Below, piece by piece: positions 1-32,583 of a stretch of DNA of 64,000 nucleotides. The stretch is from Planctomycetota bacterium (GTDB lineage: Bacteria; Planctomycetota; B15-G4; JADJEK01). Each line of letters opens with the position of its first letter. Position 1 is the stretch's first letter. The stretch lies in the NCBI GenBank assembly GCA_052034255.1, contig JBPOIU010000022.1, forward strand, positions 7,354 to 71,353, read 5' to 3'. The notes under the pieces are model-generated. The model saw only the letters and a program-made list of their open reading frames with translations. It made no database searches and was not told the origin of the DNA. The position numbers and the translations under genes were made by a program.

Positions 1-225
1 CAACAGGCCGCGCCACATGTAGACGCGCGTCACCGGCACGCCGTCGTCGACCGTCTCCTCGCGCCGCACCAGCGCGGCGTCGGCGCGATACGAGGGCTCG
101 AACGTGAACACGCGGACGTCGTGCCCGGCCGTGCCACGCAGCTTCAGCGCCAGGCGTTTCGCGTAGAGCTCGGTACCGGTCGTGTACTGCGGCGGGTATT
201 GGTGCGTGACGAACACGATCCGCAT
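1..225 (-). CDS. Glycosyltransferase family 4, N-terminal fragment; gene continues past the window start
   Basis: Minus-strand translation from the ATG at 225 gives MRIVFVTHQYPPQYTTGTELYAKRLALKLRGTAGHDVRVF, a typical GT4 N-terminus paralogous to the downstream GT4s. Its start overlaps the stop of the next gene (TGATG). Confidence 0.5.
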   Translation of the reverse strand, partial: MRIVFVTHQYPPQYTTGTELYAKRLALKLRGTAGHDVRVFTFEPSYRADAALVRREETVDDGVPVTRVYMWRGLL

Positions 226-1646
226 CAGCGTCGCCCCCCGGCGAAGTCGGCATAGTTGCGCAGCAAGTCGTTCGCGTTCTCGTGCACGGTTCGTACTCGC
301 GGTCGGGAGTCCGCCAAGCGCGCGGCGAGCCCTGGCTCGTGCGCGAGTCGGTGCAAGACCAACCGCAATGCATCGGCGTTTCCAGCCGGGAACAGGAGTC
401 CGTCGACCCCGTCCGAAACCGCCTCCTCGAGGGCTCCGATGCAGGACGCAGCGACCGGCAGTCGTGCGAGCCAACCTTCACGCAAGGTCAGACAGAACGC
501 CTCGTACCACAACGACGGCACGACCAGAGCGTCCAGGCCGGCGAGGATGCGCGGCAAGTCGTGGGCGCCGTACCGGCCATGGAAGGCGATTCGCTCGTGG
601 CCGGCCGTCGCCGCCCGGAGCTTCGCGCCGTAATCCGTGACCTCGTGCCAAGCGCCGGCTTCGCCCCAGACGTGGAGTTCCGTCGCCGGGTCCGCGAGCT
701 TCACGAACGCGTCGATCAGCACATGGACGCCCTTGGTCGGCAGTACCGAGCCGACGTAGCCGAAGCGGAAACGCGGCGACGGCGTGCGCGTGATGCCGCG
801 GAACGGAGCATCGTCGAGCCCGTTCTCGACCACGACGATGCGTTCGGGCGCGATGCCATAGCGCTCGAACACGAGCTTCGAATGGCGCGACGGCGTGATC
901 AGGCGCTCGACGCGACCGAGCAGCCCCCGCATCCAGGTGTGGTACTGCGCGAGTTGTTCCAAGTCCCGACGGTCGCGCTCCGCCTCCGGCACGTTCGGTC
1001 CGTCGCGGCCGAGGCCGAACCAGCCGCTCCACATCTGGGGCAGGCAAGTGGCACATCGCGCGACGTCGACGTCCTCGCACAGGAACAATTCGCGCGTCAT
1101 TCGTTGGCCGCGCGGACATCCCATCCAGAAGTCATGCAGTGTCATGACCACCGGCAAGCCTCGCGCGCGCGCCGCGTCGATGAGATCGGTCGACAGGCAC
1201 GTCAGATGATGGACGTGGACCACGTCGAACGACTGCCGCGCGAGTTCGGCATCGAACGCGGCGCGGATCGACGCGTTGCGCACGATGCCCGCGAAGTCGA
1301 CGCAGTCCGAGAAGCGGTAGTTCAAGCGCACGACCGCGACGCCGTCGACGCGATAGCGCTCGATCGCGAACTCCGGCCGAGTCGCGTCCGCGCCTCGCGT
1401 GAACACGACGACCTCGTGCCCGAGGCGGGCGTACTCGCGCGCCAGCGCGTGAACGTGGAGTTCGACGCCGCCGATGCTCTCCGGCAGGTAGGCCGCGGTG
1501 ACGAAGAGAATGCGCAAGGGAAGTCCGCTCGTCGCGGGTCGGGAAAGGCGCACAGCATAGACCGGGCCTTGCCCGCTCGCATGGCGTCGCTCGTCAGCCG
1601 CCGTCACCGCATGCGCGACCGAGCACGCGCTCCATGTCCGCCGCAT
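225..1646 (-). CDS. Glycosyltransferase family 4 (Cys4-insert paralog)
   Basis: The 473-aa ORF contains RILFVTAAYLPESIGGVELHVHALA, DVVHVHH, MTLHDF, a CPRG..C..CATC Cys4 motif, and a C-terminal GT-B domain. The true start is probably internal (GTG near 1553 or TTG near 1517), because the first ~40 aa are not GT4-like. Confidence 0.8.
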   Translation of the reverse strand: MRRTWSACSVAHAVTAADERRHASGQGPVYAVRLSRPATSGLPLRILFVTAAYLPESIGGVELHVHALAREYARLGHEVVVFTRGADATRPEFAIERYRVDGVAVVRLNYRFSDCVDFAGIVRNASIRAAFDAELARQSFDVVHVHHLTCLSTDLIDAARARGLPVVMTLHDFWMGCPRGQRMTRELFLCEDVDVARCATCLPQMWSGWFGLGRDGPNVPEAERDRRDLEQLAQYHTWMRGLLGRVERLITPSRHSKLVFERYGIAPERIVVVENGLDDAPFRGITRTPSPRFRFGYVGSVLPTKGVHVLIDAFVKLADPATELHVWGEAGAWHEVTDYGAKLRAATAGHERIAFHGRYGAHDLPRILAGLDALVVPSLWYEAFCLTLREGWLARLPVAASCIGALEEAVSDGVDGLLFPAGNADALRLVLHRLAHEPGLAARLADSRPRVRTVHENANDLLRNYADFAGGRR

Positions 1647-2934: not shown

Positions 2935-3087
2935 GCCGGCCTGGGAGTCCGACGGCTGGCACGCGAGGAACGCGCGCGCGGGGATCGCCGCCGAGCGGCA
3001 AAGCGCGATCGCGACATGCGCTGCGTACGATGCGCCCCACAGCGCCCGGTTCCAGAGTTGGTCCAGAGTCCGTCGGTTGGGGACGTC

Positions 3088-4476
3088 ATGCGTGCGTGGT
3101 TACGGCGCGGCCATCACGGTCCCGTCGGCGCTTTGTTTTGGATCGTCGCCACGGTGCTCGGGTGGCGCGGTGTGGAGCCGGTCGCGACGTACTTCTACGT
3201 CGCGGCGTGGTACCCCGCGCTGCTGGTCGTCGATGCCGCGACGGCGCGCAAGCGCGGCTGGTCGATGCTGTCCGACCGTCCGCTCGCGTTGTTCTGCCTG
3301 TGGGCGTGGTCGACACCGTTCTGGCTGTTCTTCGAGGTCGTCAACCTGCGCCTCGAGAACTGGTACTACGTCTTCGCCCCGGCCGACCCACTCGCGGGCC
3401 GCCTGTTCCTGATCGCGTCGTTTTCCACCGTGCTGCCCGCTCTGTTCCTCGTCGCCGATCTGCTCGACGCATACGGCTGGTTCGAGAACACGCGCATTCG
3501 CCCGTTGCCGCTGACCATCGCGACGCGCACATGGTGCTTCGTCGCCGGCGTGGCGATGCTCGTGCTGGTGTTCGCGCTCCCGACGCTCGCGTACCCGCTC
3601 GCGTGGGGCTTCCTCGTGCTCCTGCTGGAGCCGTTCAACGTCCAGCCGCGCTGGAACAGTCTGCTGCGCGACCTCGCGTTCGGGCAGCCCGGCCGACTGT
3701 TGCGCCTCGTCGTGGCGGGCCTCGCGTGCGGCGCGTACTGGGAGATCATGAACGTGCCGGCGCGCGCGCGCTGGATCTACACGATCCCGTTCTTCGACAG
3801 GACGCTCGGCGTCGAGATGCCGCCGCTCGGCTTCCTCGGCTTTGCGCCCTTCGCGCTCGAGGCCTACGCCTTCGTCCGCGCGCTCGAGATCCAAGGTCTG
3901 TCGGTGCCGTGGGAGTCCGGCCCTGGTCGAGCACGCCCGCTCGCACCGTGGTTCCGGCTGTTCGCCGTGCCAGCCGTGGTCACGGCCACGGCGCTGCTCG
4001 GCATTCGAGCGCTCGAGCGCTGGACGGTGGACTCCCGCCAGTCGACCACCGCGGAACTCCCGACCGTGACCGCGCGGGAGGCCCGGATCCTCGACCAGCT
4101 CGGGCTCGCCGACCCGCGCGACCTAGCCGTGATCGACGCCGCGTCGACGCCGTTGAACGCGACCGACCTCGCGAAAATCCTGTTCGTCGAGGACGAACGT
4201 GCCACGGACCTGATCACGCTGGCGCGGCTCGCCGAGTTCCGAGGCCTCGGAGCGCAGCGCGCGGCGCTGCTGTTTCGCGTCGGCATCCGGTCCGTGGCCG
4301 ACCTCGCCGCCGCCGATCCGGACCTGCTGCTCGATCGTTTGGCCGCGCTTGGTCCACCGTCGCGAACGGTTCGCCCCCAGCGGGTTCTGGGCTGGATTCG
4401 GGCTGCGCGCAAGGCCATACGTGATCGGGTGATCGGTCCGGATACGAGCTTCCGTTCCGAGGCCGATGCTCCCTAG
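3088..4476 (+). CDS. Polytopic integral membrane protein with C-terminal tandem helix-hairpin-helix (DUF4332-like) domain
   Basis: Start is at MRAWLRRGHHGPVGALFWIV. There are about 8 hydrophobic segments, including WYYVF and LFLVADLLD. The C-terminus reads LDQLGLADPRDLAVIDAASTPLNATDLAKILFV...FRGLGAQRAALLFRVGIRSVADLAAADP, which is HhH-like. It is divergent from the GT4 gene at 2934. Confidence 0.6.
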   Translation: MRAWLRRGHHGPVGALFWIVATVLGWRGVEPVATYFYVAAWYPALLVVDAATARKRGWSMLSDRPLALFCLWAWSTPFWLFFEVVNLRLENWYYVFAPADPLAGRLFLIASFSTVLPALFLVADLLDAYGWFENTRIRPLPLTIATRTWCFVAGVAMLVLVFALPTLAYPLAWGFLVLLLEPFNVQPRWNSLLRDLAFGQPGRLLRLVVAGLACGAYWEIMNVPARARWIYTIPFFDRTLGVEMPPLGFLGFAPFALEAYAFVRALEIQGLSVPWESGPGRARPLAPWFRLFAVPAVVTATALLGIRALERWTVDSRQSTTAELPTVTAREARILDQLGLADPRDLAVIDAASTPLNATDLAKILFVEDERATDLITLARLAEFRGLGAQRAALLFRVGIRSVADLAAADPDLLLDRLAALGPPSRTVRPQRVLGWIRAARKAIRDRVIGPDTSFRSEADAP

Positions 4477-4595
4477 AATCCCCGCCTCGTCCGTCGAGCC
4501 ATCCGGTTCGTCCACGATGCGGGGCGCTCACGCGCCGCGCTCCCGGACGTCGGTGTCGTGTGAGTCCTCTCCTCTCGATCGCAAGGACCCATCGC

Positions 4596-6104
4596 ATGAA
4601 GAGCTTCGTGAATCGTTTCCGGATCGCCGTGCCCTGCTTGTTCCTCGCCGTCGCGGCCGGTTCGGCCGACGCAGCGACGATCAACGTTCCGGCCAACTTC
4701 CCGACGATCCAAGGAGCGATCGACGCTGCGCTCCCGGGTGACACGATCGTCGTCGCCAAGGGTGTGTACGAAGAAGTCCTCAACATCCCGAACACGCTCG
4801 TCGGTCTGACGCTGCGCGGCAAGAAGGGTGCGATCTTGGACGCTCGGCCGGCCGGCGTGGACTCCGGCGCCGGCATCGTCGTCGTCGCGAACTCCGTGAC
4901 GGTGCGTGACCTCGTCATCCGCCATGCGGCGGACATCGTCAGCAACGACGGCGACGGGATCCGGGTGACCGGAACCGGCTTCATCGGCCGCAACCTGACG
5001 ATTCAACACTGCGAAGGCAGCGGCGTCGCGCTGGGCGGTACGGGCGCATTGCTCGACAACGTGACCATTTCCGGCACGTCCGATGGCGTCAACTTCGGCG
5101 CCGCGACCACGACGCTGCGTCGCGTGCGGACGAACGGAACGTCGTCGAACGGCATCGATGGAACGGGCGCCACGGCCGTGATCGACCGGTGCACCGTCCG
5201 CGACAGCGATGGATTCGCCATCGTGATCACGGGTGCCACGGCGACGCTGACGAAGAACACGGTGACCAACTGTGGTTCCACGGCGATCGTGATCACTGGC
5301 GCCGGCGCGACTCTGACGCAGAACACCGTGACCCTCTGCAACGACGGCATCTCCGTCGCGGGCAACAACGCCGCGGTGACCAAGAACAAGCTGCGCTCGG
5401 TGGACGGCACCGGCATCGCCCTCACCGGGGATACCGCCAACATCCAGTCCAACGTGATCGACGACGCCGACACGTGCGTCGCGATCCTCGGCAACGGCAA
5501 CTCGGCGATCGGAAACACCGGTCGACGCTCGGCGGAAGGCATCACGGCCGTCGGCACGACGAACAACGTCGGCGACAACGTGCTGCGCGACCAGTCCAAC
5601 GTCGGCATCTCCATCACGGGTGCGAGTTCCGGAACGTCGGTGATCGCCAACGACATCCGTAACTGCGTCGCCGAGGGCATCGTCTGCACGTCGGACACCG
5701 TGACGATCGCCGGCAACGCTCTGCGCGACTGCGGCACGTTCGATCTCGCGGCGCTAAGCGTCACGGCGAACTCGAACGACGTCACCGGCAACAACGTCCG
5801 CAACGCGCGCTCCGACGGCATTCGCGTGAGCGGCAACTCGAACTCGGTCGCGGCGAACGTCTGCCAATCGAACCTCGAGGACGGCATCGACATCGAAGGC
5901 GGCACGAACAACACGCTCAGCAACAACAACTGCTCGTCGAACTCCGCCGAGGGCATCGAGAACAACGGCGGCAACACGACGATCCAGAACTGCACGGCGC
6001 AGAAGAACCGCACCGACATCGCCAATGACGGCACGCTCGGCGCGTTCAACTTCAACGTGTTCACGACGGGTGGTCAGGCCACCGCGCCCGAAGTCGACGG
6101 CTGA
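4596..6104 (+). CDS. Secreted right-handed parallel beta-helix repeat protein (pectate-lyase / NosD-like fold)
   Basis: MKSFVNRFRIAVPCLFLAVAAGSADA is a signal peptide. About 20 periodic xxGxxIxGxxxTLTxNTVTNC coils follow, and the protein is rich in N, T and G. Its composition is unlike the high-GC artefact ORFs. Confidence 0.7.
   Translation: MKSFVNRFRIAVPCLFLAVAAGSADAATINVPANFPTIQGAIDAALPGDTIVVAKGVYEEVLNIPNTLVGLTLRGKKGAILDARPAGVDSGAGIVVVANSVTVRDLVIRHAADIVSNDGDGIRVTGTGFIGRNLTIQHCEGSGVALGGTGALLDNVTISGTSDGVNFGAATTTLRRVRTNGTSSNGIDGTGATAVIDRCTVRDSDGFAIVITGATATLTKNTVTNCGSTAIVITGAGATLTQNTVTLCNDGISVAGNNAAVTKNKLRSVDGTGIALTGDTANIQSNVIDDADTCVAILGNGNSAIGNTGRRSAEGITAVGTTNNVGDNVLRDQSNVGISITGASSGTSVIANDIRNCVAEGIVCTSDTVTIAGNALRDCGTFDLAALSVTANSNDVTGNNVRNARSDGIRVSGNSNSVAANVCQSNLEDGIDIEGGTNNTLSNNNCSSNSAEGIENNGGNTTIQNCTAQKNRTDIANDGTLGAFNFNVFTTGGQATAPEVDG
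5221..5352 (+). repeat. Intragenic tandem duplication of ~66 bp (two beta-helix coils)
   Basis: The segment atcgtgatcacgggtgccacggcgacgctgacgaagaacacggtgaccaactg is followed by atcgtgatcactggcgccggcgcgactctgacgcagaacaccgtgaccctctg at about 80% identity. Both encode IVITGA(T/G)ATLT(K/Q)NTVT. Confidence 0.4.
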
Positions 6105-6133
6105 TCCGACCGCTGCGCGAAGTGACGTGAAAC

Positions 6134-6168
6134 GGGGGCCGCTCTCGACGTAGAGCGGCCCCCTTTCG
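6134..6168 (+). terminator. Rho-independent terminator hairpin after the beta-helix gene
   Basis: The sequence gggggccgctc-tcgacgta-gagcggccccc forms an 11-bp GC stem followed by tttcgc, 30 nt after the stop at 6104. It lies between convergent genes. Confidence 0.5.
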
Positions 6169-6226
6169 CATCACATGTGGATCCGCCGCGGCGCGGAATG
6201 GACGGCGCGCGCGCCGACGAACGCGT

Positions 6227-7639
6227 TCACTTCGGCGGAGCGTCCACGCGCGCCCGCAGGGCGTCCTCGAGCTCGTGGATGCGCCGCCGCTGTTCGGCCA
6301 CGATGTCCTCCCACTTCTCGATGCGCACCAACTCCTGGAACGCCGTCTCGCGCCGATTCCATTCGTCGCGCAGACGTTCCGCGTCGTCGCGCACGGGTGG
6401 CGGAGGCGTCGGTCGCCGCAGCGCGTCGGCATAGATGGCTTCGAGCCGGGACGCGTGCTCCACGAACGTCGCGAGCCGCGGCCCTTCCGCCGTCCGCATC
6501 GCATCGAGCCGCCCCGGCTCGTCGACGAGCAGCGCGAGCTTCCGGGCGAGATCGTCCGCGTCGTTCGGCACGAACGTCAGCACGCGTCCGGTCGCCCGTT
6601 CCGCGAGAGCGCCCGCCGCCGCGGCGAGGATCGGAACTCCGAACAGCGTGGCCTCGTCGAGGATGAACGAGTACGACTCGCGCGCGAGTGTCGGGATCAC
6701 CGCCACGTCCATCGTCGCGCCTTCGAGGTCGGCGACGCGAAAGCGGCCGTGGAAGTGGACGTCGGAACCCTCGGCCAGGAGCTCCAGGCGCTCCTTGTAC
6801 TCCGGCGACGACGCTTCGCCATGCAGGTGGACGGCCAAGCGATCCCGCCGCGCGCACCGCCGCACGGCTTCGAGCAGCACGTGCGCGCCCTTCAGTGGAT
6901 GCAGATGGCTCCAGTACGCGACATGGAGTTTGCCGTCCGCCCCGCGGGCCGGCGCGGTCCGAGGCGTTTCTTCGAGCGAACCGTGCGGCAACGTGACGAG
7001 CTGCGCCGCGGTGTAGCCGAGCATGCGTCCGAGGAACGTCCCGTGCGACGTCGAAGGGGTGATCACGCACGCGGCGAGTTCGAGCTCGCGCAGCATGTCC
7101 GCGCGATAGCGGCGAATCGCCGCCGTGATCTCCGGGTCGCGTTGGAAGCGCCAGCGCGGCACGCACGTCAGGCACGCGTCCACGCTCATCGGCCGTTCGC
7201 ACGGCTCGTCGCCGTTCGTTCCCTTGAGCCGGAACACGCGCGGACAACTCGGATACAGATCGTGCGCGGTCACGACCGCACGGACTCCGAGGCGCGTCGC
7301 GATGGCGACCAGGTTCGTCGACAGCCGGATCCAATGATGCACATGCACGAGATCGGGGCGCAACGAGCCGATGTGGCGCTCGAACACCTGCGACACGCCG
7401 GGGTGGTACCCCTTGTCCCAGCGGTCGAAGTACAGGTCGTTGCGGTGCACGCGCGTGACCGGCACGTCGTCGACGACTCCGCGCTCGACTTCGAGGTCCT
7501 TGCGCCACTCGAGCGAGCCGGCGAACACGTGCGGCTCGTGGCCTGCGCGCCGTTGCTCACGCACGAGGCGCGCCACGTAGAGCTCGGTGCCGCCGATGAC
7601 TTCGGGCGGATAGCCGTGGACGACGTGCAAGATCTTCAC
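6227..7639 (-). CDS. Glycosyltransferase family 4 (Cys4-insert paralog) with C-terminal coiled-coil tail
   Basis: MKILHVVHGYPPEVIGGTELYVARLV, DLVHVHHW, VVTAHDLYPSCPRV..C..CLTC. The C-terminal ~70 aa are charged and helical (ERLRDEWNRRETAFQELVRIEKWEDIVAEQRRRIHELEDALRAR). Confidence 0.8.
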   Translation of the reverse strand: MKILHVVHGYPPEVIGGTELYVARLVREQRRAGHEPHVFAGSLEWRKDLEVERGVVDDVPVTRVHRNDLYFDRWDKGYHPGVSQVFERHIGSLRPDLVHVHHWIRLSTNLVAIATRLGVRAVVTAHDLYPSCPRVFRLKGTNGDEPCERPMSVDACLTCVPRWRFQRDPEITAAIRRYRADMLRELELAACVITPSTSHGTFLGRMLGYTAAQLVTLPHGSLEETPRTAPARGADGKLHVAYWSHLHPLKGAHVLLEAVRRCARRDRLAVHLHGEASSPEYKERLELLAEGSDVHFHGRFRVADLEGATMDVAVIPTLARESYSFILDEATLFGVPILAAAAGALAERATGRVLTFVPNDADDLARKLALLVDEPGRLDAMRTAEGPRLATFVEHASRLEAIYADALRRPTPPPPVRDDAERLRDEWNRRETAFQELVRIEKWEDIVAEQRRRIHELEDALRARVDAPPK

Positions 7640-10067: not shown

Positions 10068-10160
10068 GGCCCCACGATCGTCGGCCTCGCGCTTCCGGCG
10101 GTCGCTCGAGCGGCCGGGGTCAGGCTCGCGCCAGCCGAAGCGGCGAATCGTCCGAGCCGT

Positions 10161-11228
10161 TCACGGGACGAGCCACGAAACGCAGGCCCACCAGGCGCGC
10201 AGCAGCCCGGACAGCACGCGTTCGCCGAAACTGCCGGTCTTGCCGCGGTCGATCCGCGGCGAAAACGTCAGGTCGGGCGCCCCGAGCAGGCGGCGGTCGC
10301 CCTGCTTGCGGAACTTGGCGATGGCCTTGCGCTGGGCGCGGATCTCCGGGAACTGCGCGATCAGTGACGATTTCGCCTTCACGTATTCGCCCAGCGCGCC
10401 TTCGCGCAGCGCGAACACGACATACGCGAGCCCGAGCAACAGCAGGCCCGGCAAGGCGAGCACCAGCGTGCGCTTTCGATAGTTCTTCAGCACCACGCGC
10501 CAACGATTGCGCGAATGCAAGAACAGGCGTCGCGCTGGGTAGCTCGGACCGCCGCGGAACGAGATGCCGGCGGTGCCGGCCCGATGGTCGACCAACGCGT
10601 CCGGCAGCGCACGAATGCGCCAGCCCGCGAGCCGCAGTCGGTACGAAAGATCGTGATCCTCGAACAGGATGAAGAACGCCGGGTCGTAACCGCCCACGGC
10701 ACGCAGCTTCACCCGATCGACGAGCGCCGCCAGCGAGATGAACGCGTCGACGTCGGCGGCTTCGTGCGTACACCGATCGAGCGGCACGAAGAAATGGCGC
10801 AGCGCCATGACGCCCGCGTAGTGGAACGAGCCGCCGTCGTAATGCACGACGTCCGGTCGCGCCGCATCCAGCGCACGCGGTGCGGCCACCGCGACGTCCT
10901 GCTCGCGCTCGAACTCCAGCAGCAAGCGCTCGACACAGCCGTTTCGCACCAGCACGTCCTGATCGAGCTGGAACACGAGGTCGTGGCGCGCCTCGCTCAA
11001 CCCGACGTTGCGCGCCGGGCACGGACCATCGTTGGTCGGCATCCGGATCACGCGGACGCGGGGGAACTCGGCCGCCACCATCTCGGAAGTGCCGTCGGTC
11101 GACGCGTTGTCGACGACCAGGATCTCGGCGAACGGGAACTGCCCGGGCTGGTACAGCGACCGCAGACAGTCGCGCAGGTCGTCGCGACCGTTGTACGACA
11201 CGATGGAGACGGACACCGGGACGACCAT
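10161..11228 (-). CDS. Glycosyltransferase family 2 (GT-A) with C-terminal membrane anchor
   Basis: VSVSIVSYNGRDDLRDCLRSL...ILVVDNASTDGTSEM...FQLDQDVLV...FEDHDLSYRLRLAGW, followed by C-terminal hydrophobic segments LVLALPGLLLLGLAYVVFAL. Confidence 0.75.
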   Translation of the reverse strand: MVVPVSVSIVSYNGRDDLRDCLRSLYQPGQFPFAEILVVDNASTDGTSEMVAAEFPRVRVIRMPTNDGPCPARNVGLSEARHDLVFQLDQDVLVRNGCVERLLLEFEREQDVAVAAPRALDAARPDVVHYDGGSFHYAGVMALRHFFVPLDRCTHEAADVDAFISLAALVDRVKLRAVGGYDPAFFILFEDHDLSYRLRLAGWRIRALPDALVDHRAGTAGISFRGGPSYPARRLFLHSRNRWRVVLKNYRKRTLVLALPGLLLLGLAYVVFALREGALGEYVKAKSSLIAQFPEIRAQRKAIAKFRKQGDRRLLGAPDLTFSPRIDRGKTGSFGERVLSGLLRAWWACVSWLVP

Positions 11229-11231
11229 GCG

Positions 11232-14200
11232 TCACTTCACCGGCGGTTCGAAATCGGGAGCGCGGCAGACGACGCGGTGACGCAGGCAATACGGCAGCAT
11301 CGCGAGCGCCGCGAACGTCGCTTTGGTCGCGATCCACAAGCCACCCGGCGTCTGCTTCACGGCCTTGTCGATGCCGATCGTGCCGCTGGCGTCGTTGGCG
11401 TTGCCGCGCTTCAGTCCGAGGCCTTTCAGCCCGAGCACCCACGCCGCGCGGACGATCTGACCGATCGAGCAGTGCTTGAACGCGTACAGCCAGAAATTGC
11501 GCACGTGGAAATAGAGCGAGCGCTTGCCGCCCTTCATGCCGAACGGCGTCTTGTGGAACAGCTCGGCATCGGGGCACATCACGATGCGGTGACCGAGGCG
11601 CAGCACGCGACTCGCGAGATCGCGCTCGTTGCCGTAGATGAAGAAGCGCTCGTCGTAGTAGTCGGCGGCCTTCAGAACGTCGCTGCGCGCCAACGTCCCG
11701 CAACCGCGGAACGTCGCCATGTAGCGCTCGCGCTTCTCGGCCAGCAGGAACTCGGGCGGCATGCCGGGCTCGACGACCAACGACGACACCATCGCGGTCG
11801 AGTTCGGCTCCGCCAACATGCGGTCGTACAGGCGGCCGAGCCATTCGGGCGGCGCGACCACGTCGTCGTCCATGATCGCCGTGAACGGCTGCGTCGCGGC
11901 CTTCATGCCGAGATTGAACGTCTCGCAGGCTCCGGCCTTGTCGTGCGGCATCTCGATCAGCGTCACCTGCGGGAACTCGCGCCGGATCATCGCGGCGGTG
12001 CCGTCCTTCGACGCGTTGTCGACGACCACGATCTGCGCCGGTCGCGCCGTCTGCCGCGTCAACGCCAGCAAGTTCTCGCGGACGTCGGCGCACTTGTTCC
12101 ACGTCGAGATCACGCAACTGACCGGGACTTCGCGCGAGCTCGGGGCGGCCGGCGCGGCGGTTGGCGCGACGACATCGGTTGCCGAGGGGCGAACGGCGGT
12201 CGCACCAGCGACGAACGCTCGCGCGCGCGCGGCGAGTTCGGCCCACGCGAACAGGCGATCCGCGTCGATCTCGAGATAGGCCTCGGCCGCTTCGACGCCG
12301 CGCACGTCGACGTTGACCGTGCGCGCGCGATTCGCGGTCAGCGTCTTGTCGGTGACGTCGAGGTACGCGCGTTGGCTCGCGAACGCGTTCAGCGCGGCGC
12401 GCTTCTTCGGGAGCTGCGCCGTGACGTCGAGCAAGTACGACGCCGGCTGCGGCTCGTTCACTTCGTACAGCACGACGCGCGGGCGCATGCCGCTCTGCAA
12501 GAGCGCGTGCGCCGCGAGCCAGTACGTCGCGCGATGATCCGGATGGTGTTCCCACGGCGACGGCACGTACAGCACGTCGGGCCGCAGCGTTTCGAGCAGG
12601 CCGGTGAACCCGGACAGGAATGCCCCGTCGGGGCGCAACGCGCCATCGGGGAAGTCGAGCGCGTGGAACTCGGTGAGGCCGAGCTCGCGTCCCGCGGCCC
12701 GCGCTTCTTCCTTGCGCACCTCGGCGATGCGGCCGCGCTCCTTGCCGTCACGATCCCCGCCGGCGCCATCGGTGACATGGACGACGGCCACGCGATCGCC
12801 GCGTTGCGCGTGAAGACCCAGGGCTCCGCCCGCGCCGATGATCTCGTCATCGGGATGCGGCGCCAGCACGACCACCCGACCGCCGGGCACGCGCGCGAAC
12901 TCGGCGAGCGGCACGAACGTGAAGCGCGGATCGAACGGCGGGATTTCTTGCGGGGGCAGCGGGCCTGCGGACATCGGGGCGGACATCGGGGCGGTCGTCG
13001 ACGGAGGTGGCGAAGCGTAAAGGGCTTCCAACGTCACGGCATGGTCCGAAATCGCGAACCGACGCGCCGCGGTCCGCGCGCGGGCGGCCGCCAGCTCGGC
13101 CGGCCGCTGCAGCAGGCGCATGAGCAGGCGCGCGAGCGCGTCCACGTCCCCCACCGCGACCACGAAACCGGCGTCGCCGGCTCGCTCGGGCGCAGCGCCG
13201 CGGTCGGCCACGACCACCGGGATGCCGAGCGCGAGCGCCTCGTCGACGACCAACGAATAGGTCTCCGCAGCCGCGCTGAAGAACACCGCGACGTCGGTCT
13301 CCGCGGCGAGGCGCTGCAGTCGATCGGAGTCGAACGCTCCTTCGCGGACGACCTCGAGCGGGGCCAGGCGCTCGAGTCGGCCGAGCTGCTCGCGTTCGAA
13401 GACGGCATCCGTCGCGCGACCGAGCAACGTCAGTCGCAGCCGCGCCCGAACTTCCGCAGGCAGTCGCTCGAGCGCGTCGATCACCCGATCGACGCCCTTC
13501 ACGGGAGCGAGGTTGCCCCACCACGCGATCCGGAGCCGCCCCGCGGGATCGGCACGCCACGCTTCGGGATGGAGCGTGCGCGTCAGCCCGAGCGGCAACA
13601 CGTCGATCGGAACGACTTGCGGCAGGATGCCGGAATCGCGCAGCGTGCGCGCGGCCGCGGCCGACGGCGCCAACACCTCGTCGGCGGCGCGCAACTCGGC
13701 GTCGAAGAACGCGCGGCGCGCGAGCAGCTCCGCGCGCGGTCGCGCCTCGTCGCCACCGAATTCCGGCGCGCAACACGTCACGCAGCGCTCGAGCGGCACC
13801 GGCGTGTCGTCGCCGCAGAAGCCGCCGTCGTTCCGCACCATGAAGAAGCGCGGACACGCGGCGAGGAAATCATGCAGCGAGACGATGGTCCGCGCGCCGA
13901 ACGCTTTGGCGTCGGCGACCAGCGGACAGAACAGGTTCATGTAGTGATGGACGTGGACCACGTCGGGCGCGAATGCTCGCAGGCAATCCGCCCACCGCGT
14001 TCGGACCTCCGGCACCTCGAGGTGCGCCGAGAAGCGCGGTCCGCGATGCAAGACGCGCCACACGCGCACGCCGTGATGGGTCTCTTCGAGGACGCCGTCG
14101 CCGTCGCGCTCGCTGCCCGAGAACACCGCGACCTCGTGGCCGCGCGCCGCCTGTTCGACGACCAGCGCGGCGAGGTACGCCTCGGTGCCGCCGACGAACT

Positions 14201-14237
14201 CCGGCGGGAAGTTGTGGACCGCGTGCAGGATCCTCAT
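11232..14237 (-). CDS. Tri-domain fusion: GT4 glycosyltransferase - LmbE/PIG-L-type N-acetylglucosaminyl deacetylase - GT2 glycosyltransferase (1001 aa)
   Basis: One uninterrupted frame. aa 1-408 are GT4 (MRILHAVHNFPPEFVGGTEAYLAAL, DVVHVHHYMNLFC, SLHDFLAACPRFF..C..CVTCC). A Pro-rich linker with the tandem duplicate PMSAPMSA follows. aa ~440-690 are LmbE (VVVLAPHPDDEIIGAGGA, HPDHRATY). aa ~715-1001 are GT2 (VSCVISTWNK, IVVVDNASKDGT, DDDVV). The first 261 codons of the listed 1262-aa ORF are artefact and overlap the real LmbE gene in another frame. Confidence 0.7.
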   Translation of the reverse strand: MRILHAVHNFPPEFVGGTEAYLAALVVEQAARGHEVAVFSGSERDGDGVLEETHHGVRVWRVLHRGPRFSAHLEVPEVRTRWADCLRAFAPDVVHVHHYMNLFCPLVADAKAFGARTIVSLHDFLAACPRFFMVRNDGGFCGDDTPVPLERCVTCCAPEFGGDEARPRAELLARRAFFDAELRAADEVLAPSAAAARTLRDSGILPQVVPIDVLPLGLTRTLHPEAWRADPAGRLRIAWWGNLAPVKGVDRVIDALERLPAEVRARLRLTLLGRATDAVFEREQLGRLERLAPLEVVREGAFDSDRLQRLAAETDVAVFFSAAAETYSLVVDEALALGIPVVVADRGAAPERAGDAGFVVAVGDVDALARLLMRLLQRPAELAAARARTAARRFAISDHAVTLEALYASPPPSTTAPMSAPMSAGPLPPQEIPPFDPRFTFVPLAEFARVPGGRVVVLAPHPDDEIIGAGGALGLHAQRGDRVAVVHVTDGAGGDRDGKERGRIAEVRKEEARAAGRELGLTEFHALDFPDGALRPDGAFLSGFTGLLETLRPDVLYVPSPWEHHPDHRATYWLAAHALLQSGMRPRVVLYEVNEPQPASYLLDVTAQLPKKRAALNAFASQRAYLDVTDKTLTANRARTVNVDVRGVEAAEAYLEIDADRLFAWAELAARARAFVAGATAVRPSATDVVAPTAAPAAPSSREVPVSCVISTWNKCADVRENLLALTRQTARPAQIVVVDNASKDGTAAMIRREFPQVTLIEMPHDKAGACETFNLGMKAATQPFTAIMDDDVVAPPEWLGRLYDRMLAEPNSTAMVSSLVVEPGMPPEFLLAEKRERYMATFRGCGTLARSDVLKAADYYDERFFIYGNERDLASRVLRLGHRIVMCPDAELFHKTPFGMKGGKRSLYFHVRNFWLYAFKHCSIGQIVRAAWVLGLKGLGLKRGNANDASGTIGIDKAVKQTPGGLWIATKATFAALAMLPYCLRHRVVCRAPDFEPPVK

Positions 14238-14947
14238 GGCGTTCCGGCGCGTGCGTCCGGCTCGAGCGCGACGAATGCCTCGCCGTACGTCGCTCCCTTG
14301 TCGAGGAACACCGCGCGATACGCGTTCAGACCGGACACGAAGCGGCGGATGTCGGTGTGCTCGAGCTGACTCGGATAGCAGTCGAGCGCCGCCATCTTCG
14401 TGGCGTAGACGCGCGAGACGTCGACGATCCACGTCGCGCGCGACGCGCTCCAGACTTCGTAGCCGAAGGCGCGCGGCGGACGATCGAGTTGCGCGAGCAC
14501 GCGCTGCGTCAGCACTGCGGTCGTGTAGTGGTCCGAGTGCTGGTCGCCGAGATGCGGTGCGTAGACCACGTCGGGCGCGAACCGCACGAGCGCGTCCTTC
14601 AACCGCGGCAGGATCGCGCCGAGGTCGTCCTCGTGGACGCGGTAGTTGTCGGGGAAGCCCCAGAACTCCTGCGCGGCGATCCCGAGCACCTTGGCCGCCG
14701 CGCGCGCTTCGGCCTGCCGGCGCGCCGCGTACGCCGGCTTGTCCTCGCGCCCGGTCGGATCGCCCGACGTCCCGGCCGTCAGGAACAGCACGTGGATTTC
14801 GTCCCCGAGCTCCGCATGCAACCGGATCGTGCCTCCGGGTCCGATCGTCTCGTCGTCGGGGTGTGGAGCGAGCACGAGCACGCGACCCCGCGCAGGCGGC
14901 GCGCTCAAGCGGATCGGCGGAGCGGGAGGTTCGAGGTAGCGCGTCAT
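14234..14947 (-). CDS. PIG-L/LmbE family deacetylase (standalone paralog)
   Basis: VLVLAPHPDDETIGPGGTIRLHAELGDEIHVLFLTAG and the DQHSDHYTTA motif form the Zn-binding His/Asp pattern of the MshB/BshB/PIG-L fold. Its stop overlaps the ATG of the fusion gene (ATGA). Confidence 0.8.
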   Translation of the reverse strand: MTRYLEPPAPPIRLSAPPARGRVLVLAPHPDDETIGPGGTIRLHAELGDEIHVLFLTAGTSGDPTGREDKPAYAARRQAEARAAAKVLGIAAQEFWGFPDNYRVHEDDLGAILPRLKDALVRFAPDVVYAPHLGDQHSDHYTTAVLTQRVLAQLDRPPRAFGYEVWSASRATWIVDVSRVYATKMAALDCYPSQLEHTDIRRFVSGLNAYRAVFLDKGATYGEAFVALEPDARAGTP

Positions 14948-15110
14948 ACGGGCGAGAGCTTGGGCACTCCGAGGGTGGACGGCGGTCGTCGTGGACTTCC
15001 GAGGCCGCGCATCCCACCAAACCGTTCGAGGTCGTGAAAGAATCCCCCGCGAGCGGCGGAACGAGCGAGAACGGCGAGCGCGAGGAGGATGGTCGAGGCG
15101 ACTCCGAGAC

Positions 15111-15141
15111 CGTGAATCAATCGGATGGATTCACGTTTTCT
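15111..15141. other. Stem-loop abutting the GNAT gene stop
   Basis: cgtgaatc-aatcggatg-gattcacg is followed by ttttct on the plus strand. On the coding (minus) strand it is preceded by an A-tract and is not followed by a U-tract. Confidence 0.3.
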
Positions 15142-16154
15142 CAGTAGATGTCCGAGTCCCCCATCGTGAAGAACCAATGATCCTGCGCCCAGCGTTCGTC
15201 GAACTCCGGGCCGAACACACGGATGCAGAGGTTGAACGTCGACGGATCCGGTGCGAAACCGAGAGTGCGAAGCGTCTGCGCGAGGCTCGACCAGCCGGGA
15301 GCCCAGGTCTCCATGCGCGACTTCCCGGCATCGCGCGCGAGCATGGCCGCGCGTTGCGCAAGGCCGGCGACGGCCTCGCGATCCTCGCCCTCGACGATCC
15401 AGTCGACGAGCGGCGCGAGCGGTTTGTCGAACCACTCGGTGCGCAGCACCAGCACGCCGCGCAAGCGCCCCGCCGCGCGCGCTTCGAGCACGCGATAGCG
15501 GAACGACGGACAGCGGGAGTAGCGCCACTCGAGGTACGCATGATCGCGGCATAGCACCAGCGGCAGCTTCGCCATCGTCGCGTCGAACAACGCGTCGACG
15601 TCCGCTGGAATCGAGGCGACCTCGCGGACCTGGACCGCATCCCCACCCATCGGTCCGAGGTAGTCGATCCAGTCCTGCGCGAAGTCGCGGACCAGCGCGA
15701 CGACCGGCGTGTGGACCGGTCGGTAGTCGAGGATGCGCGTGCCGATGCGGAACGCCTGCGGATTCGGGAAGCCGTAGACGATGCGATCGCGATCCGGTCG
15801 CCCGTAGGCGTCGAAGAACGCGCGCGCGAGCGACAGGAACAGGCCCTCCTTCTTCAGCACGCGACGCCACGCCGGTGCGACGCAGGTGTCGACCGCTTGC
15901 GACCCGAGCATCGGCGCGCCGCGATCGAGCCATAGCGCCGGGATGGCCGTGTAGTTGCCGACGATGGCTCCGCTCGCGTCCTCGGCGACGAACGTGTGGT
16001 GCCCGTGCGGGTTGTGCGCGAACTGCCACTGCCAGTGCGCGAGCGTGCGCGGCGTGAACGTCGGATTGCCCTCGGCGAACACTGCGTTGAACAGCGCGAG
16101 GATCCCGTGTTCGTCGCCGGACCGATAGGGCCGGATCGTGAAGTCGGAGCTCAT
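15141..16154 (-). CDS. GNAT-superfamily acyltransferase, ~337 aa (two-lobe, MshD/Eis/FemAB-like size)
   Basis: Start is at MSSDFTIRPYRSGDEHGILALFNAVFAEGNPTF, aa 101 of the listed ORF. AWRRVLKKEGLF resembles the (R/Q)xxGxG/A motif. The C-terminus is NLCIRVFGPEFDERWAQDHWFFTMGDSDIY. It is a paralog of the gene at 17211. ATGA overlap with the kinase stop. Confidence 0.6.
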   Translation of the reverse strand: MSSDFTIRPYRSGDEHGILALFNAVFAEGNPTFTPRTLAHWQWQFAHNPHGHHTFVAEDASGAIVGNYTAIPALWLDRGAPMLGSQAVDTCVAPAWRRVLKKEGLFLSLARAFFDAYGRPDRDRIVYGFPNPQAFRIGTRILDYRPVHTPVVALVRDFAQDWIDYLGPMGGDAVQVREVASIPADVDALFDATMAKLPLVLCRDHAYLEWRYSRCPSFRYRVLEARAAGRLRGVLVLRTEWFDKPLAPLVDWIVEGEDREAVAGLAQRAAMLARDAGKSRMETWAPGWSSLAQTLRTLGFAPDPSTFNLCIRVFGPEFDERWAQDHWFFTMGDSDIY

Positions 16155-16993
16155 GCCAACGTCTTTCGGCCAGGGCCATCGCCCGACTTGCGCGCAGGCC
16201 TTTGCCACAGCGCGCGCCATTTCGCGCGCGAGCAGTACGTCGCCGCGCGCGCACCGCTCTCGCGCAACGCGAGCGCGCGGTCGGCGAATCCGGTCGCGTC
16301 GGGCGCGTAGGCGCGCAGGAACGCGCGCGCCGCTTCGTCGTCGGGCACCAACGCCGCGCTCTCGAATGCCGACAACACATCGGCGAGCGCCGCTTCGCGC
16401 GCCCGCACCGAATGATCGACCAGCACCCCCGACGGATGATCGATCCACAGCCATCGCGTGGCTTCGTCGCGCGAACGCACGCGCAGCAGGTTGCGCGGGC
16501 TCGCCGCCAGATGGAGGTAGCCGCCGTCATGCATGCGGCTCAGCGTGCGCGCGAACTGCAGCCGCCCTTCGTCGCGTCGTGCTTCCGGCGTGCCGCTCCA
16601 CAGCAGGATCTGCGCCAACGACTTCACGTCGCCCAGGTCCTCGAACGCGACCAGTTGGTCGACGACGAACCCGCGCGCGCGACGCTCGCCGTAGGCGATC
16701 GCGGGAACCACCGGCAGGCCGCGTTCGAACGCCGTCCGCGAGTTGTCGTACTCGCGGTGCGCGCGCGACCGGCTCCAGGGCGTCAATGCGTTGCGAGCGA
16801 ACGGCGGGCGATAGAGCTTCACGAACACGCGGGGCGCGGCGGGAGTCGGTTCGACCCACGCATGGAACGTGTTGCGCTCGCGCCGCCATTGCTTGACGGC
16901 GGGATGCTCGGGCACGAGCTCGCGCAACACGGCGGCGAGGCCGGGCCAGCGATCCGGTTCGGCGACGACCAGGTCCGGGAAGAGGGGCGGCAT
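16151..16993 (-). CDS. Kdo/WaaP-family (lipopolysaccharide/sugar) kinase-like protein
   Basis: Start is at MPPLFPDLVVAEPD. VFVKLYRPPFARNALTPW...FERGLPVVPAIAYGE...MHDGGYLHLAASPRNLLRV matches the protein-kinase-like fold of the KdkA/InaA/WaaP family. Confidence 0.5.
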   Translation of the reverse strand: MPPLFPDLVVAEPDRWPGLAAVLRELVPEHPAVKQWRRERNTFHAWVEPTPAAPRVFVKLYRPPFARNALTPWSRSRAHREYDNSRTAFERGLPVVPAIAYGERRARGFVVDQLVAFEDLGDVKSLAQILLWSGTPEARRDEGRLQFARTLSRMHDGGYLHLAASPRNLLRVRSRDEATRWLWIDHPSGVLVDHSVRAREAALADVLSAFESAALVPDDEAARAFLRAYAPDATGFADRALALRESGARAATYCSRAKWRALWQRPARKSGDGPGRKTLA

Positions 16994-17210
16994 GACGCGA
17001 GAGCTTCGAACTTCCACCGGCCCGCATCAACTGCCGGCTGAAAAAGACCGGCCCGACCGGCACGCGCTCCAGTGGCCCGCGGGCAACCGGGGGACGCGTC
17101 CCGCCTCGACCGGCCTCCGCGGTCCGTCGGCGGCCGAGCCAAGTTCAAGGCGCGCCGGAGTTCGTGACGATGGGCTTGAACCCACGCCGACGAAGGTCGA
17201 AGCTCCCCGC

Positions 17211-18242
17211 ATGACCGTGCCCTCCGAACAGCTCGTGATCCGTCCGTACCGCGAGGGCGACGCGCCGCGCATCCTCGCGTTGTTCAACGAGGTCTTCGCC
17301 GAAGGCGATCCGAACTTCCACGAGCGCACGCTCGCGGAATGGGAATGGGAGTTCGTCCACAACCCCGCCGGCGAACAGATCGTCGTCGCCGAGGAGCCCG
17401 GCACCGAGCGCATCGTCGCGCAGTACGCGTGCTTGCCGGCCTGGGCGAACTTGAACGGCCAGCGCGTGTGGATCGGGCAGGGCATCGACTCGGTGGTCCA
17501 CAAGGACTACCGCCGCGGGCTGAAGCGCGAGGGCGCGTTCCTGCGCACCGCGAAGTACTACTTCGACCACATCGGCATCGCCGACAAGAACGCGTGGGGT
17601 TACGGCTTCCCGAACAGCAAGGCGTTCGGGATCGGCGTGAAGCTGCTGAAGTACCTGCCGATCGCCGCGCCGGTGCCAACGCTGTTCCGCAACCTGTTCC
17701 AGTGCGCGAACGACGACGCCGTCGGGCGGCACCGCTCCGCGGACCTGCGCGTCGTCGACGTGCAGCGCTTCGACGCGTCGGCGGACGCGTTCTGGGCGCG
17801 ACTCGAACCGCTCTATCCGATGGCGATCCGGCGCGACGCCGCATACCTCAATTGGCGTTACCTCGACAATCCACTGGCGCGCTACGTCGCGTTGCGGCTG
17901 GTCGACGCCAATGGTGCGCAGCGCGGCGTCTGCGTGCTGCGGCCGGATTGGACCGGCCCGCCGATCCTCGCCGTCGCCGAATGGCTGGTCGAGCCGAACG
18001 ACGTGGTCGCGACGTCGTCGCTGCTGCATGCGGTGACGCAGTGGGCACGCGCGCATGGCCAACAACGCATCGAGGTCTGGGTGCCGCCGACGCACCCGCA
18101 GTTCACCGCGATCCAGGCCGAGGGCTTCGCGGTCGAGTCGTCGCCCTTCAACCTCTGCATCAAGATCTACCGCCCGGAACTGACCGAGGACTGGGTCAGG
18201 GCGCACTGGTACTGGACGATCGGCGACTCCGACGTGTTCTGA
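17211..18242 (+). CDS. GNAT-superfamily acyltransferase, ~343 aa (paralog of 15141..16154)
   Basis: MTVPSEQLVIRPYREGDAPRILALFNEVFAEGDPNFHERTLAEWEWEF...DYRRGLKREGAF...NLCIKIYRPELTEDWVRAHWYWTIGDSDVF is collinear with the minus-strand GNAT at roughly 50% identity. It is divergent from the kinase gene. Confidence 0.6.
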   Translation: MTVPSEQLVIRPYREGDAPRILALFNEVFAEGDPNFHERTLAEWEWEFVHNPAGEQIVVAEEPGTERIVAQYACLPAWANLNGQRVWIGQGIDSVVHKDYRRGLKREGAFLRTAKYYFDHIGIADKNAWGYGFPNSKAFGIGVKLLKYLPIAAPVPTLFRNLFQCANDDAVGRHRSADLRVVDVQRFDASADAFWARLEPLYPMAIRRDAAYLNWRYLDNPLARYVALRLVDANGAQRGVCVLRPDWTGPPILAVAEWLVEPNDVVATSSLLHAVTQWARAHGQQRIEVWVPPTHPQFTAIQAEGFAVESSPFNLCIKIYRPELTEDWVRAHWYWTIGDSDVF

Positions 18243-19064: not shown

Positions 19065-19259
19065 CCCGCGGTTGACTTGAGGCCGCCCGGCACGGGCAGT
19101 ACGGTCACGCCGCGTCGAAGTTCGCGCGGCGCGCATCGCTCGAGGGATTCTTCGGGGCGAGCCGGAACGGGCGGTCGCGCGCGGTGCGATCGCCGTCGTG
19201 TTCCGAACTGGCTCGTGCTGGCGATGCCGAAGTCCGCCGTCGTTCGAAGGGACCGCGTC

Positions 19260-32527: not shown

Positions 32528-32583
32528 AGGCGCCGAGGCGCGCTCGTCGGTGCGTACGACCGACAGTTCCCACTGGGCCGCGA

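Follow-up and report, generated by a model that had tools for sequence, protein, structure and literature searches.

What is made by nine glycosyltransferase (GT) domains encoded, together with deacetylases and acyltransferases, within 18 kb of a planctomycetal genome, and do they all belong to one pathway? The locus in question occupies positions 1-18242 of a 64,000-nucleotide stretch of DNA (hereafter, the window) from a Planctomycetota bacterium (assembly GCA_052034255.1, contig JBPOIU010000022.1, positions 7,354 to 71,353 of the forward strand). The initial annotation took it to be almost entirely one pathway, with the chemical logic of mycothiol or bacillithiol assembly and not that of classical exopolysaccharide or O-antigen loci. 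Comparison with homologous loci gives a different answer on both counts. The region consists of two separable predicted gene modules, A and B, not one. Module B (genes g5-g11, here with g12), together with a Wzm/Wzt ABC transporter and the glycosyltransferases GT2a and GT2b encoded at 32.6-36.9 kb of the window, probably constitutes an ABC-transporter-dependent pathway of a planctomycetal envelope heteroglycan. To our knowledge, little is understood of planctomycetal envelopes, and their surface glycans are almost wholly uncharacterised.

At the G+C content of the window (about 69%), raw lists of open reading frames are uninformative, and genes were therefore called from third-codon-position GC. 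JGI gene calls, made independently on a near-identical metagenome contig of 240 kb (L001), agree with the resulting gene model. Domains were assigned by Pfam with gathering thresholds, and equivalogs by NCBIfam cut-offs. Homologous loci on contigs from metagenomes and metagenome-assembled genomes (MAGs) are denoted by L-numbers. Module A loci were gathered by a metagenome scan with g1 (30 loci, 25-58% identity), and module B loci by scanning species-representative genomes with g9. The extension beyond the left edge of the window was obtained via a 99% cluster representative (P0033) on contig L037, which comes from a 99%-identical strain. Exact matching of g1, as translated or with Met for its TTG-encoded Leu, gave no result, and that of g9 gave only a contig of 6 kb. 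For the lower-GC loci L029 and L030, the gene layout was taken from tblastn labels only.

Two gene modules

The genes g12 to g5 form a single co-directional string on the minus strand, with short gaps or 4-bp overlaps. The genes g2, g1 and g0 form a second minus-strand string, which exits the window at its left edge. Between them, g3 and g4 are on the strand opposite to the flanking strings, and g13 is divergent from g12. Module A comprises g0-g4 and at least five further GT domains left of the window.

Modules A and B adjoin in the window and in L042, L020, L021 and L029, and are apart in most other loci. Module A without module B within 10 kb was observed in seven loci (L010, L012, L013, L015, L024, L008, L007), and module B without module A in six (L044, L046, L048, L050, L070, L045). 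The assignment of almost the whole region to one pathway thus gives way to two separable conserved modules.

One may go further and suppose that A and B are functionally unrelated glycan systems, chance neighbours in this genome, the 18-kb locus being a mere juxtaposition. Their independent occurrence and the presence of the opposite-strand genes g3 and g4 between them agree with this, and we regard it as a serious possibility, towards which we nevertheless do not quite lean. Indeed, a g5-like GT4 gene adjoins g2/g1-like genes in all five loci where the modules meet (in L021 together with an orphan 570-aa protein), the GT4s of both modules have a common Cys4 insert, and a Wzm/Wzt pair adjoins A-like GT genes in L030. 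A functional link between the modules is possible.

Module B and its exporter

Full-length relatives of g9 were found in only about ten MAG species of the species-representative scan, all of them labelled Planctomycetota except L049. The order of genes in module B is the same in ten loci with 31-92% identity (L042, L122, L050, L044, L048, L049, L046, L047, L070, L045): g11-type GNAT, PIG-L, GT4, PIG-L, GT2, GT2 (g8), GT2 (g7), GT4 (g6), GT4 (g5). It is kept even where the proteins are only 31-59% identical.

Seven distant module-B operons start with genes encoding an ABC-2 permease, an ATPase bearing a Wzt_C domain, and GT2a (L044, L045, L047, L048, L049, L050, L070). These are all the distant loci with recognisable genes in the upstream flank, and in each of them the transporter and GT genes form one contiguous operon. 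GT2b is also present in five of the seven (Pfam, tblastn), and in the distant relatives the g11-type GNAT gene follows directly after GT2b.

Orthologues of these leading genes were found in the window, all on the minus strand. The first operon gene corresponds to a Wzm-type ABC-2 permease of 308 aa with six hydrophobic segments (35927-36853; Pfam ABC2_membrane 80.8 bits, threshold 26.9), followed by a Wzt-type ATPase of 404 aa with a C-terminal Wzt_C domain (34723-35937; ABC_tran 70.7 bits, Wzt_C 30.9 bits). GT2a (389 aa, 33531-34700) and GT2b (316 aa, 32584-33534) are orthologous to the third and fourth operon genes (tblastn, Pfam). The permease is 30-41% and the ATPase 39-56% identical to the heads of the module-B operons of relatives (tblastn). 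The identities to the proteins of L044 are 53% for Wzt, 44.5% for GT2b, 38% for Wzm and 37% for GT2a; the Wzt_C domain in the Wzt orthologue of L044 scores 31.6 bits. The best NCBIfam matches of the transporter subunits are TagH, galactan Wzt and Wzm, and KpsM, all below the cut-offs; for Wzm the best match is galactan Wzm.

The initial annotation saw no export machinery. This holds within 1-18242, where the Pfam scan revealed no Wzx, Wzy, Wza, priming enzyme or nucleotide-sugar genes, but not for the window, where Wzm/Wzt are encoded at 34.7-36.9 kb. Similarly, the claim that the logic is not that of classical exopolysaccharide or O-antigen loci does not agree with orthologous operons headed by Wzm and a Wzt_C-bearing Wzt, nor with the fact that a PIG-L protein in a lipopolysaccharide (LPS) core cluster has already been discussed, namely DnpA of P. 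aeruginosa (PMC10579960).

In the window, Wzm and Wzt adjoin only GT2a and GT2b of these genes, and the rest of module B is 15 kb away. The same split layout is observed in L122 (64% identity). The best reading is that module B was ancestrally a single operon, into which about 15 kb of other genes was inserted in the lineage of the window.

The locus L049 is a separate observation. Its contig (JBLIMM010000068.1) is labelled as belonging to a gammaproteobacterial MAG (Pseudohongiellaceae), yet holds a planctomycetal module B. Compared to L044, its transporter subunits and an NhaA antiporter are 63-71% identical, and the other mapped genes 40-63%. Either the contig is mis-binned, or the module-B operon has been transferred horizontally.

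Deacetylases and N-acyltransferases

Module B encodes two PIG-L/LmbE deacetylase domains. One is the stand-alone protein g10 (237 aa, 14234-14947, minus strand; Pfam 101 bits). The other is the middle domain of g9 (1001 aa, 11232-14237, minus strand), a GT4-PIG-L-GT2 tri-domain fusion in which PIG-L (PF02585) scores 105 bits, above the threshold. The motifs APHPDDE and H(S/P)DH are intact in both domains, the latter as HSDH in g10. In the distant module-B loci, GT4, PIG-L and GT2 are three separate adjacent genes in the same order as the domains of g9. Thus the fusion is particular to the lineage of the window.

The g11 protein (337 aa, 15141-16154, minus strand) is a predicted N-acyltransferase with two GNAT domains in tandem. 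Its AlphaFold (AF2) model is a confident tandem GNAT with two GNAT-fold domains (predicted local distance difference test, pLDDT, 93; predicted template-modelling score, pTM, 0.91). The Foldseek matches (E=1e-12, TM-score 0.56-0.66) include Eis2, the Eis-like proteins of E. faecalis and B. anthracis, N-myristoyltransferase (NMT), a fungal glucosamine N-acetyltransferase (4zm6), and a tandem GNAT from clavulanate biosynthesis (2wpw). Judging by length (337 aa against about 400), g11 apparently misses the third, SCP2-like domain of Eis. In the g11 family, the chain terminates in a nearly invariant G-D-S-D-(I/V)-(Y/F). In Eis and NMT, the C-terminal carboxylate is the catalytic base, and the nearly invariant C-terminus of the g11 family is consistent with an amine N-acyltransferase with a base of this kind.

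A paralogue, g13 (343 aa, 17211-18242, plus strand), is 40% identical to g11 over the full length. Acetyltransf_9 scores 30.8 bits in g13 and 24.0 bits in g11, the latter just under the gathering threshold of 25; a search of PDB sequences with g13 produced no meaningful match. The two proteins differ in their distribution. The g11-type GNAT is present in eight of the ten module-B loci, and every GNAT of module B is of this type. The g13-type family is small and planctomycetal (130 matches), and its members from distant genomes occur in unrelated neighbourhoods. Hence only g11 is a pathway component, and g13 is probably outside the pathway, being a member of a widespread planctomycetal family. 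The two GNATs described initially are thus both present and paralogous, and one of them is specific to the locus.

The order GT4-PIG-L-GT2 and the conserved tandem GNAT support a sequence of hexosamine transfer, N-deacetylation and re-acylation. The initial annotation likened this combination to the pathways leading to mycothiol, bacillithiol, glycosylphosphatidylinositol (GPI) and aminoglycosides; on that reading the entire 18 kb would be one pathway of this type, producing a phosphorylated, N-acylated oligosaccharide or glycolipid with glucosamine, outside classical export. In its favour, the GT4, PIG-L and GNAT genes are indeed found side by side and conserved as a group, the best NCBIfam matches include BshB1 and BshA, though below threshold, the fold of g11 resembles the aminoglycoside acetyltransferase Eis, and a gene for a GCS2-type carboxylate-amine ligase is probably co-transcribed with GT2b. 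However, the equivalogs are far below their cut-offs (MshA 58.7 bits versus 462.5, BshA 47.4 versus 273.7, BshB1 82.8 versus 182.5, MshB 31.7 versus 224), no cysteine ligase (MshC/BshC) was found among the window genes scanned, and eight to nine GT domains far exceed the need of such pathways. Moreover, orthologous operons begin with Wzm/Wzt, the region comprises two modules, and the kinase-like protein g12 is lineage-specific and has no catalytic Asp. We consider such a pathway very improbable. What remains of the initial proposal is the unit of GT4, LmbE and GNAT genes, which is conserved across species and for which N-deacetylation and re-N-acylation are a reasonable expectation; its mycothiol-type membership is not retained.

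The closest precedent is the PIG-L protein DnpA from the LPS-core cluster of P. aeruginosa, which was proposed to deacetylate N-acetylgalactosamine transferred by WaaG prior to L-alanylation (PMC10579960). It was the sole relevant item in the literature outside subscription journals, where we found no described system joining LmbE/PIG-L with Wzm/Wzt or O-antigen, and no paper on PIG-L and GNAT in a Wzm/Wzt operon.

Glycosyltransferases with a Cys4 insert

The nine GT domains encoded within 1-18242 are six GT4 and three GT2 domains (Pfam, E-values 1e-10 to 1e-30), all on the minus strand. The GT4 domains of module A belong to g0 (1-225), g1 (430 aa, 225-1517; orthologues in 30 metagenome loci) and g2 (433 aa, 1594-2895). 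The g0 gene runs off the window start, and its fragment, the N-terminus of a GT4, matches Glyco_trans_4_4 with 23 bits, below the threshold; in the 99%-identical L037 it encodes a full GT4 of 458 aa. In module B, the GT4 domains are those of g5 (470 aa, 6227-7639), the last gene of the module, g6 (473 aa, 7636-9057), and the N-terminal part of g9. The GT2 domains are g7 (316 aa, 9054-10004), g8 (355 aa, 10161-11228), and the C-terminal part of g9.

All five complete GT4 domains contain, in their N-terminal half, a Cys4 insert with the pattern C-(P/A)-R...C...CxxC (CAR in g6), as the initial annotation had observed for its Cys4-GT4 paralogs. The EX7E motif is retained. The insert would probably bind zinc. 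A search of PDB sequences with g1 found only generic matches to the GT4 C-terminal domain, none with the insert.

By hydropathy, the GT4s, PIG-L proteins, GNATs and g12 have no predicted membrane segment, except for one borderline hydrophobic stretch in g9. There is a single hydrophobic stretch in each of g7, g8 and GT2a, which in g7 and g8 is a C-terminal helix. So few membrane segments fit assembly at the cytoplasmic face of the membrane.

The C-terminal tail of g5 (about 60 aa, window 6227-6420) is charged and heptad-like. Coiled coils serve as rulers of chain length in some O-antigen systems of the ABC-dependent type.

The kinase-like protein g12

Pfam supports the protein families listed in the initial annotation (nine GT domains, two PIG-L/LmbE, two GNATs, Kdo/WaaP, a beta-helix protein, a membrane protein with a helix-hairpin-helix (HhH) tail), with g11 as a GNAT and g0 below threshold; the LmbE, GNAT and Kdo/WaaP calls were specifically upheld. 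The sugar kinase activity assumed for the Kdo/WaaP member was not. This protein, g12 (280 aa, 16151-16993, minus strand), matches Kdo (PF06293) with 39 bits against a threshold of 21.3. The top Foldseek match of its AF2 model (pLDDT 93.9) is WaaP (6dfl, E=1.5e-10, 21% identity), followed by Bud32/PRPK and RIO; a search of PDB sequences gave no meaningful match. In the alignment of the subfamily, Lys58 of beta3, Glu80 of alphaC, Asn167 of the loop and the metal-binding Asp184 are invariant. In the catalytic loop, H-L-A-A-S-P-R-N, the Asp of HxD is replaced by Ala, and this Asp is absent across the whole subfamily. A distant relative, P0311, has the canonical loop H-N-D-L-V-W-R-N.

The subfamily is narrow. 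A word-indexed search found only four relatives of g12, with at least 64% identity, and an exhaustive HMMER search yielded nine representatives, followed by a steep drop to generic Kdo/WaaP-like proteins. The distant module-B loci do not contain g12. Judging from this distribution, g12 is a lineage-specific addition to module B. Since it is lineage-specific and has no catalytic Asp, neither a sugar kinase nor a phosphorylated product is supported. We may only conjecture that g12 binds a nucleotide and serves as a regulator or scaffold.

The position of g12 is occupied in L044, L046, L048 and L049 by a gene for an NhaA Na+/H+ antiporter, which is thus situated inside a glycan operon, with the GNAT gene on one side and the first PIG-L gene on the other (8680-9918 in L044).

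Proposed pathway

The domain identities, intact motifs, conserved gene order, presence of the transporter and largely soluble nature of the GTs are shown; what the enzymes act on and in which order, which acyl group is added and where the glycan ends up are proposals. Synthesis would begin with a polyprenyl-phosphate-linked primer, whose initiating enzyme would be encoded elsewhere. The primer would be lengthened at the cytoplasmic face by GT4 and GT2 enzymes that are soluble or peripheral, and of which eight domains are conserved as a set (module B with GT2a and GT2b). The two zinc-dependent PIG-L enzymes would strip N-acetyl groups from N-acetylhexosamine (HexNAc) residues. The location of PIG-L between GT4 and GT2 suggests consecutive steps of adding HexNAc, de-N-acetylating it and extending the chain, with deacetylation as a gate as in GPI assembly; g10 would perform a second deacetylation. 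The freed amine would be re-acylated from acyl-CoA by the Eis/NMT-like g11. Finally, Wzm/Wzt would export the finished lipid-linked glycan, with Wzt_C recognising some feature of the chain. According to PMC9445017, carbohydrate-binding domains of Wzt recognise modified O-antigen termini. With regard to an enzyme that would terminate the chain with a cap read by Wzt_C, such as the kinase/methyltransferase WbdD, there is no methyltransferase in the operon, and g12 is kinase-like, lacks the catalytic Asp and is missing from the distant operons. The final acceptor could be lipid A-core, protein or a free lipoglycan.

Several observations weigh against this pathway. The match to Wzt_C is only marginal (30.9 bits against a threshold of 30.4). 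The transporter genes are about 15 kb from module B, the genes between are unrelated, and the coupling is deduced from orthologous loci. The g11-type GNAT is absent from two of the ten loci (L045 and L070), and re-acylation is thus not universal. No protein scanned reached an NCBIfam equivalog cut-off. The scanned window genes include no priming enzyme, ligase or nucleotide-sugar gene; a priming enzyme of the WecA or WbaP type and the final ligase are usually encoded elsewhere. Lastly, all the loci behind the predicted pathway come from MAGs. Even so, we regard export of a module B glycan by Wzm/Wzt as the probable reading.

The scheme puts forward a specific step, that is, HexNAc transfer, PIG-L deacetylation and GNAT re-acylation on a lipid-linked intermediate, which until now was a speculation concerning the LPS core of P. 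aeruginosa only.

Module A

Module A is a second predicted multi-glycosyltransferase operon, widespread in Planctomycetota. As the initial annotation expected, the locus extends beyond the window start. Past g1, L037 contains g0, a gene for a 149-aa coiled-coil-like protein, a GT2 (300 aa), a GT2-GT4 fusion (905 aa), another GT2 (405 aa) and a short GT2 (240 aa), where the contig ends. The conserved order, seen on mapping the window proteins onto the 30 loci found with g1, is g2-like GT4 ... g1, g0, small protein, GT2, GT2-GT4, GT2, short GT2. No flippase, polymerase or priming enzyme was found in L037 beyond the left edge, and there is no Pfam match to Wzx or Wzy either in L037 or among the scanned called genes of the window. 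A standard Wzx/Wzy cluster immediately upstream, the alternative named initially, is therefore not seen. No PIG-L, GNAT or kinase genes lie within 10 kb of module A in the mapped metagenome loci.

The protein g3 (462 aa, 3088-4476, plus strand), divergent from g2, is a multi-pass membrane protein by hydropathy with a C-terminal, HhH-like DUF4332 domain (Pfam 37.7 bits); the HHH_5 match alone is below the threshold. Its pairing with a g2-like GT4 is also kept in L038 and L042. The protein g4 (502 aa, 4596-6104, plus strand) is a secreted right-handed beta-helix protein (Pfam Beta_helix 108 bits, signal-peptide-like N-terminus) restricted to close relatives, namely L042 only.

Module A may build another part of the same glycoconjugate as module B. 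One version of this idea retains the ABC-dependent assembly, and places the glycan on a protein, such as an S-layer or other surface glycoprotein, or leaves it as a free lipoglycan rather than a part of LPS, with decoration in the periplasm by a polyprenyl-phosphate sugar synthase of module A and GT-C enzymes. The short GT2 of module A is nearest to the polyprenyl-phosphate glycosyltransferases AglJ, PpgS and ArnC, all below the NCBIfam cut-offs, and ArnT/PMT-like GT-C genes (PMT_2) come after module A in L010 and L008. There is no WaaL-type ligase among the window genes scanned, and the gene order is stable across deep divergence, unlike that of O-antigen loci. However, neither an oligosaccharyltransferase nor a target protein was identified, the PMT_2 genes are seen in relatives only, as L037 ends before the corresponding position, and the adjacency of A and B is not universal. 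This version seems unlikely.

The short GT2 (9239-9961 in L037, 18003-18707 in L010, and equivalents) is 68-76% identical between loci and its neighbours only 31-49%, which indicates a much stronger constraint on it. The 149-aa protein (3890-4339 in L037) has as its sole matches the coiled-coil regions of SMC/Rad50. In the most distant g1-like loci, with about 32% identity (L030/L031, 2064-11221), a Wzm/Wzt pair is located directly upstream of module-A-like GT2/GT4 genes, as labelled by tblastn. This may be a sign that enzymes of the module-A type are able to supply an ABC exporter as well.

In L044 (18988-20697), L046, L048 and L050, the last gene of module B encodes an orphan membrane protein of about 520-570 aa, which in L021 (1060-3018) is found ahead of module A. 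The 570-aa protein has no Pfam match at E<=1 and no NCBIfam match. It was considered as a homologue of g3 or g4 and rejected, as both BLASTP and hhalign were negative.

Genes between the exporter and module B

The genes in the 15-kb interval encode a C39-like peptidase, a RimK-type ATP-grasp protein, a GCS2 ligase, an FGase, a MacB-type ABC system, an AttH-like lipocalin, a YCII protein, an extracytoplasmic function (ECF) sigma factor and others. Next to GT2b, a cassette at 28331-32587 (minus strand), observed in this lineage only, encodes a Peptidase_C39_2-like protein, a protein with RLAN and RimK-type ATP-grasp domains, a GCS2 carboxylate-amine ligase (29062-30303, minus strand) and the FGase. 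The family of this ligase differs from that of the cysteine ligases MshC/BshC. The first three genes are linked to GT2b and to one another by 4-bp overlaps, which makes co-transcription of the cassette with Wzm, Wzt, GT2a and GT2b probable. Its products might introduce modifications by amino acids or peptides, or the cassette could merely have been inserted there.

These genes enter a bolder version of the proposed pathway, which we regard as doubtful. Here the lineage would make, via Wzm/Wzt, a conserved, non-serotype-variable envelope glycan in which lipid-linked HexNAc deacetylated by PIG-L is re-acylated with a non-acetyl group (of fatty acyl or aminoacyl type). The glycan would be built by the Cys4 GT4s, and the amidoligase cassette (ATP-grasp and GCS2) and the degenerate WaaP-like protein would have been recruited as modifiers or regulators. 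If true, this would add a class of N-acyl-hexosamine envelope polymer that has not been described before.

Further along the minus strand (23905-28264), a MacB-type ATPase (27563-28264), an FtsX/MacB_PCD permease (25029-27581) and an AttH/CrtC-type lipocalin continue the string; the trio is also present in L122. On the plus strand, between g13 and a PhnB-like gene, positions 19077-21380 encode a protein (about 720-767 aa) whose match to SQHop_cyclase_C (prenyltransferase/terpene-cyclase repeat) is marginal. This gene is present in L042 and absent from the more compact L122. It raised the possibility of hopanoid glucosamine synthesis by an HpnI-type GT2 and an HpnK-type deacetylase, which was rejected: HpnI scores 19.6 bits against a cut-off of 310, the cyclase match is 26.7 against 26.1, and the gene is missing in L122.

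Elsewhere in the window, cell-wall-related genes on the minus strand at 50460-53542 and 60218-61030 encode a GH26-like protein, an M15 D-Ala-D-Ala dipeptidase, a second Peptidase_C39_2 protein and an Amidase_3 N-acetylmuramoyl-L-alanine amidase. A CHASE2-adenylate/guanylate cyclase is encoded at 42632-44794.

Comparison with known systems

Two conserved operons rich in glycosyltransferases are thus delimited in uncultured Planctomycetota, and one of them is placed in an ABC-dependent export route. This does not change a paradigm; it gives glycobiology a clearly bounded starting point in a phylum that has received little study. By its permease, its ATPase with Wzt_C, its operonic GTs and the absence of Wzx/Wzy among the genes scanned, the predicted pathway belongs with the Wzm/Wzt export systems of O-polysaccharides, galactan and teichoic acids. 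Its unusual parts are the GT4 subfamily with the Cys4 insert, the GT4-PIG-L-GT2 fusion, the NMT/Eis-like GNAT and the Asp-less WaaP-like protein. Two of these, the Cys4 GT4 subfamily, whose insert has no solved structure, and the Asp-less WaaP-fold family, are thereby brought to attention.

In ABC-dependent O-polysaccharide systems (E. coli O9a, Klebsiella, Wzm-Wzt of Aquifex aeolicus), a permease and a Wzt_C ATPase likewise head an operon whose GT4 and GT2 enzymes are cytoplasmic and in part multi-domain; there is no Wzx/Wzy, and the priming enzyme is not in the cluster. Unlike these systems, the operon considered here contains two PIG-L domains and a tandem GNAT, and all its GT4s have the Cys4 insert. 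No terminator of the WbdD kinase/methyltransferase type was recognised in it, g12 being of another fold subtype and without the catalytic Asp. In the window genome the operon is split, and its gene order is deeply conserved rather than serotype-variable.

In the LPS core of P. aeruginosa, a GT4 (WaaG), a PIG-L protein (DnpA/PA5002) and WaaP-family kinases are similarly encoded together, and transfer of HexNAc, N-deacetylation and re-N-acylation were proposed to yield galactosamine carrying L-alanine, GalN(L-Ala) (PMC10579960). However, the core oligosaccharide follows an inner-membrane route with export by MsbA rather than Wzm/Wzt, WaaP is an active kinase, and sequence identity to the window proteins is low.

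The GPI, mycothiol and bacillithiol pathways (PIG-A/PIG-L; MshA/MshB/MshD; BshA/BshB) also proceed from a GT4 to a PIG-L-family zinc deacetylase and then to modification of the freed amine. A deacetylation gate before the next transfer, as in these pathways, would fit the order GT4-PIG-L-GT2. In contrast to them, the equivalogs fail widely here, there is no cysteine ligase of the MshC/BshC type among the genes scanned, the GTs are many more, and an ABC exporter is attached.

Mycobacterial galactan export (Wzm-Wzt, Rv3781/Rv3783) and TagGH are the best NCBIfam matches of the transporter subunits, although far below the equivalog cut-offs (181 versus 400 and 78 versus 380), and their GT set is unrelated. 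They carry a conserved, non-serotype-variable, lipid-linked envelope polymer. O-antigen loci are serotype-variable and hypervariable. In the deep conservation of its gene order, module B appears to resemble the systems for conserved envelope polymers more than those for serotype-variable O-antigens.

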